A stretch of 64,000 nt of DNA from Eledone cirrhosa. Its lineage: Eukaryota. Location of the stretch: NCBI GenBank assembly GCA_964016885.1, contig OZ024752.1, positions 10,602,001 to 10,666,000 of the forward strand. Reading direction: 5' to 3'. A program made the translations under genes and the position numbers. Below the pieces are notes generated by a model. The model worked only from the letters and a program-made list of their open reading frames with translations, had not been told where the DNA came from and did no database searches. This document shows, piece by piece, positions 5,641 through 10,372 of the stretch (positions are counted from its first letter, which is position 1; each line of letters begins with the position of its first letter).

Positions 5641-8600
5641 TGCGCACATATACTCACATACACACACACACACACACACACATATATATATATATATACA
5701 TATATACATATATATATATATATATATATATATATATATATGGGGGGGGGGGGTAAGTAAAGCGTCATTTAGATTAATATTTGTATTTTTAAAGATATAT
5801 TATAAAGACTAATAGTATTTAAAGAAGCAACAGTATTCAATTAGATGTAAACAATAAATATATATTATAATATATTTTTATGTTTTAAAATATTTTAAAA
5901 TATATCTTAAATTTGCTTTGTTCTATATATCAATGTAAGGGTGGTAGTTCAAGAGAGTACACTGGTGTAAAATGATAAAGTATATTATTAATTTTGAAAT
6001 ATCTAAGTATTATTTCTATGTATATATGTATAGTTAGATATATGTATTTAACGTGTATCTCTCTCTAATAAATCATTATCAGATATACTTATGGAATATG
6101 TGTGGGATATCTCGGAAAATTAATAAATTGAAATATCACTATTAATTATAGGTGAGTACATAATGTTAATTTGATACATAAATTGAGATTAGATGAGACA
6201 ATATATTATATTAAATAAATAAATATATGTTGTTAAATATATATCTGTATCATATAACATATATAAATGTGAGTGACTAATGAATTCATTATCAAATTAA
6301 GTTTGAAGTACATACACTTAGTTAAATATTTATATTTATGTTATATGTTTATCTAATATATATTTGTGTTTCGTATACTTATCGGATATATGGTAACAAG
6401 ATTTGTGTTTAGTAAAATAATATGTCTCTAGCAATAATAATTGTTTCTACTTTTAGCACAAGGCCAGAAATTACGCAGTGCATTACTGGTACTTTATTTC
6501 CGTAAGGATGAAAAGCAAAGTTAACCTCGGCGGGATTTGAACTTTGCGTCAAAACATGGCGTCCGTCCCTCTACCGATACTGCCAAAGCAATAATAATGA
6601 AGTATATTTTATTAAAATAAAATAAGCTCAGTAGGTGTGAGAGTATATTGAATTACATAAACAAATCTATCATATAACATATATAAATATTAAAGGCTAA
6701 TGATATATTATTAGGTTTCCATGAATTTAATATAGGATTAGTAATAGTTGAGGTATATCATTATTAACTATCTAGCGTTGGGTATGTAATAGTTAAAAGA
6801 CTGTAGGTTTTTATGTGAGCAAGTGGAGAAGATATCTGATATATAGGTCTGTGTGAAAGTCATATAAATATATAATTATACATTTACGCATGTGCTATAC
6901 CGGTAGTGAAATATACATGATTTTTCGAAGGATTCCGCTATATGTATTGCTCTGCCTAATAGAGAGGAAGTCTGTTGAAATATACTCATGCCGTGAACAT
7001 CCAGTCGCTGTTATTGTTAGGCAATGGATCTGATACTAGTATATGTATGCTTGTGTTGTCTGACTCCAGAAGGATTTCAGCTGCTCTTATGCACTTGTCG
7101 CTAAAGCATGACGGGATATCATATGTTTTCCTCATAATACTACTATTTATTTTAGTCATTGTTAGGCCTTCCAGAAGCTTTAATGTACAATCCAAAAGGA
7201 ATGTCGATAGTAAAAATACCTTTTTACAAATAAAATTCATAGGAGATTTTATTCATCGCTAGGACACACAAATTGTATTATAAAATATGTTCAAATTCTT
7301 TTTCAGCAAATCTGTCAATCATGCAGAGCATATTAAAGAAATATCTGATTTTTCTCTCAAACTATGGAAAACGGCAATTAGAGAATTACCAATTTTATAA
7401 AAAGTGTTTTATAATTCTGACAGATAGAAATGATTTCTTCATAATTCTATCACTTTCAAATTATTAAATTATAGCATTTTTTTTTTTTTTTACATATAAT
7501 GCAAATATTCAGTTTTGCAATAGCAGCTAATGAATGGGTTGCAACGCGCCAACTTAAAGTAATACATACAATTATAAAAATGATTATCTGTCCGCTGAGT
7601 GTTTCGATTCAATCGTCTAATTCTACCACAAGTCACTGTGTTTGGACCATGAACAAAATATCATAGTTTTATGCATAGTGTGGCAGACATTAATTTAACG
7701 TGTCATTCCTTTAATAAAGAATTTAATTTGAGAGAAATCGAGTCTTTGCTTAAAAAGCATGTCCTTAGCTGATGTTCTTCAAACTTGCTTTACTGTTGTC
7801 TCAAACTACTTTGCATTTTTGTTAAAATTCATTTTAAAAATGTCAATACATTTCATATTGACCTAAACAACTTTTGTGCAGTCCTTATAATGAAATACAA
7901 ATAACTTCTCGTTTGACTTCTTAAATGAAAATATATTTGCTATTAGAATTATAATGTGATATATTAGTTTTGTACAATTACGATAATACAATATGATTTA
8001 ACATACACACTATATTCTACACCAATCTAAGCACTAGGCTAGCAAATTCTGGGACAAGGCAAAGTTGATTAACACAACCATGAGAAACACTATATGTTAT
8101 TGTCCCCGAAATAATGAAAGGCGAATTTGATCTCGGTGGGAATTGAAATCAAAATGCAAAGAACCAGTCTAAATCTCTAAAGTCTGTCTTAAGCCAGAAG
8201 CCTCATTTGGCCGGTGATTATCCCGGTTTCATAGCGTGAAGCGACTGAGAGTACAAGACTCTACCCTGGACAGGACGCAGGATTAAACCTCCAGCTTAGT
8301 TTTTTTTTCGTGTTACAAATGTTTCACAGGCATGTAGCTCGAGTCATGGTCCTTGTATGGATCTGGCTGATTCTACTTATGCGGGTTCTTTCAGACACGT
8401 CTGTTATGTCCGGAGTGAATTTTATCACTCACCATAGCTTGCACCATAGCTACCACTATACACACACACACATAAATATGACCCTCCCCAAGTATAACAA
8501 TATATATATATATATATATATATATATATTTAAAAACACACAGATACATGCGGACACACACATATATACATGAAGACAACTGGAAAGCTTCCATTACTCA

Positions 8601-8798
8601 TACTTCTCGCCTTCTTCACTACCTCTTCTACGGCCTCGATATGAATACCCCCTCCGCCTCCGTGGTATTTTCTTCGTGGTTATAAGAGGCTTAGCTCTGT
8701 TTCTCGACCGTTATATCGCGTGACTATCTCCCCCTCCGCCTTTTGGGATTCTTTCTCACGTCGTGTAGACGCGTTCTTGAGACTAGTAAAATGAGGTA

Positions 8799-8886
8799 TC
8801 CTCTTGATAAGTTGGCAGACCTCGCAAGGACTCTATACCTTTGATATATTGTTTTTGTTTATGCCACGAAACTACGTAGTCGAGGA
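8799..8886 (+). ncRNA. Type I hammerhead ribozyme, U3-A8 core variant (copy 1)
   Basis: tcctc-TTGATAA-gttggca...tgccac-GAAA-ctacgta-GTC-gagga; palindromic stem III actacgtagt; predicted cut after 8881. Confidence 0.85.
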
Positions 8887-9389
8887 ATTTAGGAACAGTT
8901 TAGGTATGATACATTTTATTACTAATTATATCTAAATGTTTCTTCTCTCTTCATAATGTATTTTTAACTCTGATACTGGTTCAGTCTGGTTCAAACTGAA
9001 TTGGTCTGTCCCAGTCATTCATTGAGCAACATCGGTGAAGTTGGCACCCTTAACTCACAGTTGGGTGCGGATGCATTCATGTATATATGTGTGTGTCCGC
9101 ATGTATCTGTGTGTTTTTAAATATATTAATAACTCCCTCTGGTCGAGCAATCTTTGAGGTGTGGGGACAACTGGAAAGCTTCCATTACTCATACTTCTCG
9201 CCTTCTTCACTACCTCTTCTACGGCCTCGATATGAATACCCCCTCCGCCTCCGTGGTATTTTCTTCGTGGTTATAAGAGGCTTAGCTCTGTTTCTCGACC
9301 GTTATATCGCGTGACTATCTCCCCCTCCGCCTTTTGGGATTCTTTCTCACGTCGTGTAGACGCGTTCTTGAGACTAGTAAAATGAGGTA

Positions 9390-9477
9390 TCCTCTTGATA
9401 AGTTGGCAGACCTCGCAAGGACTCTATACCTTTGATATATTGTTTTTGTTTATGCCACGAAACTACGTAGTCGAGGA
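9390..9477 (+). ncRNA. Type I hammerhead ribozyme, U3-A8 variant (copy 2)
   Basis: Identical to 8799-8886, +591 bp; predicted cut after 9472. Confidence 0.85.
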
Positions 9478-9980
9478 ATTTAGGAACAGTTTAGGTATGA
9501 TACATTTTATTACTAATTATATCTAAATGTTTCTTCTCTCTTCATAATGTATTTTTAACTCTGATACTGGTTCAGTCTGGTTCAAACTGAATTGGTCTGT
9601 CCCAGTCATTCATTGAGCAACATCGGTGAAGTTGGCACCCTTAACTCACAGTTGGGTGCGGATGCATTCATGTATATATGTGTGTGTCCGCATGTATCTG
9701 TGTGTTTTTAAATATATTAATAACTCCCTCTGGTCGAGCAATCTTTGAGGTGTGGGGACAACTGGAAAGCTTCCATTACTCATACTTCTCGCCTTCTTCA
9801 CTACCTCTTCTACGGCCTCGATATGAATACCCCCTCCGCCTCCGTGGTATTTTCTTCGTGGTTATAAGAGGCTTAGCTCTGTTTCTCGACCGTTATATCG
9901 CGTGACTATCTCCCCCTCCGCCTTTTGGGATTCTTTCTCACGTCGTGTAGACGCGTTCTTGAGACTAGTAAAATGAGGTA

Positions 9981-10068
9981 TCCTCTTGATAAGTTGGCAG
10001 ACCTCGCAAGGACTCTATACCTTTGATATATTGTTTTTGTTTATGCCACGAAACTACGTAGTCGAGGA
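9981..10068 (+). ncRNA. Type I hammerhead ribozyme, U3-A8 variant (copy 3)
   Basis: Identical to 8799-8886, +1182 bp; predicted cut after 10063. Confidence 0.85.
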
Positions 10069-10372
10069 ATTTAGGAACAGTTTAGGTATGATACATTTTA
10101 TTACTAATTATATCTAAATGTTTCTTCTCTCTTCATAATGTATATATATATATATATATATATATATATATATATATATATATATATATATATATGTGTG
10201 TGTGTGTGTATATATATATATATATATATATATGTATGTATATATATGTATGTATATATATATATATGTATGTATATATATGTATGTAGATATATATATG
10301 TATATATATATATGTGTGTATATATATATATATGTATATGTATGTATATGTATGCATATGTATGTATATTAT

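Follow-up and report, generated by a model that had tools for sequence, protein, structure and literature searches.

Metazoan non-LTR (long terminal repeat) retrozymes have been described as non-coding tandem units, present in thousands of copies, with one type I hammerhead ribozyme per unit (Cervera and de la Pena 2020, PMC7229834; Li et al. 2026, 10.64898/2026.07.22.740005); statements on these and all other cited papers refer to the available portions of their text. Reverse transcription of retrozyme circles by Penelope-like elements has been proposed in both papers and not demonstrated, and PMC7229834 refers a single time to editing, which it says might account for heterogeneity of the RNA. 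Neither the ends of insertions nor a layout with two arms nor editing marks in the genome are described in the available portions of the two papers, and the terms "inverted" and "target site" do not occur in that of PMC7229834. Penelope-like elements leave an "inverted copy plus tail" layout (PMC8557442, PMC3846280), and in vitro work explained it by two internal start sites, both DNA strands being extended (PMC11167929). Here we describe a 591-bp tandem element of Eledone cirrhosa, located in a 64-kb window (the whole stretch of DNA analysed; contig OZ024752.1, positions 10,602,001 to 10,666,000), that shares features with both systems.

We consider it probable that the array in the window was inserted recently and belongs to an abundant retroelement that is non-coding and carries hammerheads, a non-LTR retrozyme, and jointly that it was made by Penelope-type copying of one unit into (TA)n. 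The family offers population-scale genomic evidence on three steps of an undemonstrated copying route, and its copies are valuable for what they reveal about it: the machinery (Penelope-type ends), the number of templates (a single one for each insertion, with two fixed sites where reading starts) and the template form (one unit read repeatedly and marked by A>G changes).

Unit position 1 is defined here as the first base 3' of the predicted hammerhead cut. The initial annotation of this DNA had proposed 2.65 identical 591-bp units in a (TA)n tract, and the period holds exactly over 8575-10143 (1,569 bp, 0 mismatches), with (TA)n adjoining the array at both ends. Ahead of the units, 8524-8574 is the exact 51-bp reverse complement of 9076-9126, joined to them blunt and head to head at 8574/8575. 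In length the unit fits the range that Li et al. 2026 give (51-972 bp), and it is non-coding; its longest stop-free frame is 86 aa when read as a circle, and no complex open frame of at least 200 aa was found within the window. All three proposed hammerheads, one per unit, were located, with TCCTC-TTGATAA beginning at 8799, 9390 and 9981, GAAACTACGTAGTC-GAGGA beginning at 8868, 9459 and 10050, and predicted cuts after 8881, 9472 and 10063. Each combines stem I (TCCTC/GAGGA), the core TTGATAA, a 57-nt stem II domain and a 10-nt palindromic stem III. The core is the U3:A8 covariant of C3:G8, a variant reported to be natural and active (PMC3088659). An Rfam scan gave no match at gathering scores; stem II here is 57 nt long.

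The fold of the unit is more stable than 100/100 dinucleotide shuffles (z -4.85), as is its circular form relative to 40 shuffles (z -4.98), whereas the hammerhead region taken by itself is no more stable than its shuffles (z 0.12). Stem III is predicted to be stable when formed between two molecules (-12.9 kcal/mol as a self-duplex) and unstable as a hairpin (+1.5 kcal/mol). The fold predicted for the circle breaks up stem I, an arrangement that would shield a circle. The motif resembles the dimeric Penelope-type hammerheads (PMC4209133) in its type I fold, G10.1-C11.1 pair and palindromic stem III that is unstable as a hairpin, and departs from them in its ten-base perfect palindrome and long stem II. 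Across subfamilies one stem I pair covaries from U-A through U-G to C-G. Older subfamilies (~80% identical) retain the hammerhead layout and core, and their copies keep TTGATAAG in 18-19/19; the hammerhead 3' half of these copies was fixed by the search pattern and is no evidence of conservation. Core conservation alone is not significant (1 array-wide allele in ~33 core and stem I positions, ~4 expected).

A search of the organism's own genome gave 189 matches within the 40 candidates, out of 823, that were scored. The exact A-end (right) junction of the element occurs 1,984 times in the genome, the exact B-end junction 1,049 times and the exact hammerhead 3' half 7,488 times, with 0 occurrences for each reversed-pattern control. 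The many copies are dispersed and lack LTR structure. Judged from sequence, the 591-bp family thus has the testable retrozyme features (tandem non-coding units, a hammerhead motif per unit, dispersed copies), and the retrozyme interpretation of the initial annotation is supported. The insertion sample (n=120) combines the 40 best-scoring loci, which are biased to long, young copies, with 80 stretches around the 82 A junctions that come first among the 1,984. The latter lie on one contig and were chosen by their A end, which excludes any insertion with just a B arm. Two local duplicates, nested or cut-off fragments in loci L101 and L105 and five microsatellite look-alikes in L054 were left out, while several variant tallies (781 comparisons, 78/143 alleles, the mirror test and the polarised counts) use 125 entries, including five short L054 pieces. 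The window's own subfamily (236T/523T) is absent from all 80 unbiased loci and therefore looks rare and very recent; its single-unit variants amount to 0.044%. At window position 9117, C makes up 99.8% of the summed contig depth of run X1. Older subfamilies (L151-L180) have a period of about 581-596 and the same A and B ends, and their hammerhead variant has 230 exact genome matches.

Insertions of the family end 3' at two fixed sites, A (position 76-81) and B (~245), 165 nt apart and each followed by (TA)n, while their 5' ends are scattered (120 insertions). Among two-armed insertions, A and B arms lie head to head in 73/75, the other 2/75 have an irregular second end, and A+A or B+B pairs number 0; 45/120 insertions have one arm. 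Arm joints are blunt, overlap by 1-8 nt or carry short inserts. Since 73/75 two-armed insertions pair A with B, the 51-bp inversion in the window is a second (B) arm. The exact inversion noted in the initial annotation is present, but as an arm from a second fixed site rather than a random 5' inversion, and the array end 80 nt past the last predicted cut (10063), also noted there, proves to be a family-wide fixed end. The genome-wide search recovered other arrays with varied 5' starts and inverted second arms. A fold-back origin of the second arm is ruled out by 5'-end distances at chance level (within 15 nt of each other in 5/69, 3.6 expected) and by the presence in each arm of sequence missing from the other (5/69).

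From its sequence, this two-end, inverted-arm layout is the Penelope tail signature. Two fixed 3' ends with an inverted truncated arm are found here as in non-autonomous Penelope-like elements, and the reverse transcriptase (RT) plus GIY-YIG frame of an autonomous Penelope element was not found in the 591 element. Further likenesses to endonuclease-bearing Penelope-like elements (PMC11167929, PMC8557442, PMC3846280) are the partial tandems, the inverted 5'-truncated arm placed head to head, the one-end tail, the (TA)n preference and a hammerhead upstream of the two ends. Unlike them, the 591 element has no reading frame and arms of up to ~7 units. Its start sites are 165 nt apart versus 30-40 in Penelope elements (PMC11167929), and one A is strictly paired with one B, whereas the purified anole enzyme showed no strand difference (PMC11167929). 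Non-autonomous Chlamys elements such as MRC1 (PMC8557442) are likewise non-coding, with multicopy head-to-tail insertions; they differ in resembling their autonomous partner at the 3' end and in belonging to a clade without canonical hammerheads.

These data bear on the view that the family is a DNA-level satellite, produced by local duplication, gene conversion or assembly artefact, or a terminal repeat split off from a coding Penelope element. Li et al. 2026 propose that terminal sequence of Penelope is amplified locally in tandem, and in the sample two insertions underwent a later local duplication that took in their flanks. The insertions are nonetheless dispersed, with fixed ends in (TA)n, their strand-asymmetric variants (described below) are common to inverted arms, and copies are present in independent sequencing runs. 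No coding frame is contiguous with the unit, one nested case excepted. We regard this view as very improbable and already largely refuted. Of the outcomes that the initial annotation named as refuting the retrozyme reading, two did not occur: the array is no local duplication or artefact lacking other genomic copies (thousands were found), and the unit is not the terminal repeat of an adjacent coding element (the window has no long complex frame, and 1 arm in 120 insertions adjoins a coding frame, best read as nested). The local duplications themselves comprise whole two-armed insertions with flank, at L078:3975-7828 and L147:3949-7292, with a ~2.6 kb period.

Variants were compared between arms and between units. 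The arms agree at 778/781 comparisons at common polymorphic sites, and both arms therefore come from one haplotype. Twenty-eight alleles occur in a single sampled insertion, where each of the 2-8 copies carries them; unsampled parents could share some of these. Arms cross the cut site 333 times with 0 indels within 6 nt. These sequence patterns fit best with one unit read repeatedly. A circle is the simplest form of such a template, and the predicted form is probably an RNA circle. One 621-nt contig of run X2 spans the cut-site joint; a genomic DNA tandem would give the same. Among 6 sequencing runs, all of them consisting of contigs, no RNA run was listed as containing the element.

Two linear templates were weighed against the circle. 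With the same element and enzyme, the template could be an uncut linear multimer transcribed from the parent array. Uncut RNA is the dominant substrate of the anole Penelope enzyme, for which cleavage is dispensable (PMC11167929), and seamless cut-site joints are equally expected from a multimer. An edit in a multimer should, however, mark one unit and the mirror position in both arms, and variants restricted to both mirror copies number 0, versus 45 in one of two mirror copies (five "mirror" rows were discarded, the mirror pair carrying the majority base). This test is weakened because very young parent arrays are nearly homogeneous, as the low single-unit variation of the window's subfamily illustrates. 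Additionally, A>G is enriched only among alleles common to all units, so that a multimer template would require some step that spreads a one-unit change to all units. We consider a multimer unlikely. Less likely still is a cleaved linear monomer on which the RT jumps repeatedly from the 5' end to the 3' end. This would explain array-wide alleles equally well, and long arms with a 5' end in positions 1-30 are mildly enriched just past the cut (12/109, p 0.009; other bins hold 9-11), a point that also counts against the circle. Set against jumping are the 333 joint crossings without indel and the rarity of arms that begin, or end, exactly at the cut (1/200).

The variants also carry a strand-specific mark. 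Among 78 distinct array-wide alleles, read on the ribozyme strand, A>G accounts for 30 and T>C for 12 (p 1.6e-5 given 133 A and 212 T), whereas the 143 single-unit-only alleles contain 7 A>G and 23 T>C (Fisher p 1e-4 versus array-wide alleles). Array-wide C>T (8) does not exceed G>A (12), which speaks against a general G-U tolerance effect. The skew holds for rare alleles (at most 3 carriers; A>G 14 vs T>C 8, p 0.015), singletons (9 vs 5, p 0.046), the 57 alleles across both arms (26 vs 5) and the 41 alleles in at least 3 copies (22 vs 3), and 7/10 distinct alleles of the window's subfamily are A>G. Polarisation with 22 older loci gave A>G 23 and T>C 11 (p 5.6e-4; 6 added). Because the mark is strand-specific, absent from single units and common to inverted arms, it arose before copying, either in RNA or at the source locus. 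Inosine is read as G, and from the sequence pattern A-to-I editing is the best fit for the A>G excess. Positions 340, 395, 537 and 547 are candidate recurrent editing sites, several A>G sites recurring on different haplotype backgrounds. In the window copy, unit position 277 is one such site: it reads G, against A in the older subfamily and in most of the family.

A competing account keeps the copying cycle proposed below and attributes A>G to transcription-linked DNA mutation at source loci or to selection on RNA structure. It draws on several observations that weigh against editing. At the A>G sites no clear ADAR preference is seen, whether in the 5' neighbour (G at 3/30 vs 28/133), the 3' neighbour (G at 8/30 vs 23/133) or pairing (63% vs 60%). 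Fixed differences between old and young subfamilies show no A>G drift (A/G 14 and 10, T/C 13 and 12), and 7/30 A>G alleles reverse polarity against the outgroup. Neither mutation nor selection readily accounts for a ~3- to 4-fold per-base strand asymmetry that is missing from single-unit variants and has no parallel C>T excess, for the same sites on several haplotype backgrounds (position 340 on six), or for the changes at neighbouring positions 113/114 that each of the 7 copies of L097 carries. We hold a source of A>G other than editing to be possible but doubtful.

Combining these results, we give about even chances to the reading of each insertion as the fossil of one ADAR-edited circular RNA, read for several turns simultaneously by two Penelope RTs, one per strand and start site, with edits that become heritable and drive the evolution of the element. 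In this proposed cycle a tandem array would be transcribed, hammerheads next to each other would form a shared stem III from their palindromes and release 591-nt monomers, and a host ligase would close these into circles, in which ADAR would edit some adenosines. A borrowed Penelope RT-endonuclease would then cut both strands of (TA)n, and the two DNA 3' ends would start synthesis on a single shared RNA, one from site A, the other from site B. Each RT would run round the circle over a variable distance, and the two cDNAs would join by their far ends. Such a route suggests that RNA editing can be written back into the germ line. Since the family supplies exact start sites, a target, positions of possible editing and a candidate enzyme that is co-active, in vitro reconstitution of the cycle is possible.

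Beyond the points raised above, several others speak against this cycle. The hammerhead is not the minimum-energy fold of the unit, and 8/9 frog retrozyme dimers were uncleaved in vitro (Li et al. 2026). The start sites of the anole element were the same for both strands (PMC11167929). Sequence shared with the 591-bp unit was found in none of the 30+20 GIY-YIG loci or the L120 family, a small part of the 10,595 first-look GIY-YIG candidates, and a pattern that combines this core and a short stem II gave 0 matches. The 10,595 candidates show a genome rich in Penelope-like elements, and coding elements of this kind in it have the same two ends in (TA)n.

On end geometry and age, the L211 family is a candidate source of the partner enzyme. 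It encodes a 938-aa frame with RT and GIY-YIG (G000:C1:145867500-145877400, minus strand; period 4,979 bp; 3,661 first-look candidates; also loci L212, L216, L219, L220 and L222) and has a U3:A8 hammerhead with palindromic stem III. Its ends lie +82 and +150 past its cut, 68 nt apart, in (TA)n, with a B-end motif that closely resembles that of the 591 element, and its best 40 copies are ~100% identical, which makes it very young. L211-family pieces starting exactly at its B site occur at L130:7051-7307, L138 and L178; the one at L130 follows a 591 A arm across the TA tract.

A second Penelope-like family (L120:1514-3640, L231-L250) shows ~2.5% divergence; its hammerhead is minimal, and ~40 nt separate its two ends in (TA)n. 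At L120 its frame is joined to a 591 A arm through 5-6 nt of microhomology. A template-switch chimera was rejected there: the Penelope family predates the arm and has no relation to the unit, and a nested insertion with deletion is therefore preferred. L168 is a case of simple adjacency, and what L206 has is a neighbouring copy of the 591 element.

In comparison with described retrozymes, the 591 element stands apart in its 57-nt stem II, its U3:A8 core and a hammerhead that is not the predicted ground state. No paper among the top-ranked literature matches, without supplements, dealt with retrozymes of cephalopods, with retrozyme insertions that have two arms or with marks of editing in copies of retrozymes. 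Coordinates of the features are collected in Table 1.

Table 1. Features of the 591-bp element insertion, in window positions.
Feature	Position	Strand	Remark
Left half of (TA)n target tract	8500..8523	.	
B arm, inverted copy of unit positions 195-245	8524..8574	-	3' end at fixed B site against (TA)n
A arm, 2.65 identical 591-bp units	8575..10143	+	Unit position 285 to fixed A site (position 80)
Hammerhead motif 1, type I	8799..8886	+	Predicted cut after 8881
Hammerhead motif 2	9390..9477	+	Predicted cut after 9472
Hammerhead motif 3	9981..10068	+	Predicted cut after 10063
Cut-to-cut monomer, predicted 591-nt RNA	8882..9472	+	Second monomer 9473-10063
165-nt stretch between A and B ends	8962..9126	+	Equivalent of Penelope "tail" (cf. 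PMC11167929)
CpG-rich segment upstream of hammerhead	9222..9381	+	14 CpG/160 nt, two CCCCCTCCGCC boxes and TTATAA; possible internal promoter
G at unit position 277, candidate editing mark	9158 (also 9749)	+	Both copies in array
Right half of (TA)n target tract	10144..10369	.	Degenerating distally

Directly left of the insertion, window 8108-8447 holds two or three other high-copy repeats, with contig depth of up to 200,000 versus 4-9 for unique flank. The left flank has single-copy depth in runs X1 and X3, with contigs that end at the repeats near 8205. Elsewhere in the window, 16707-16922 is a two-copy tandem with a 106-bp unit of complex sequence.

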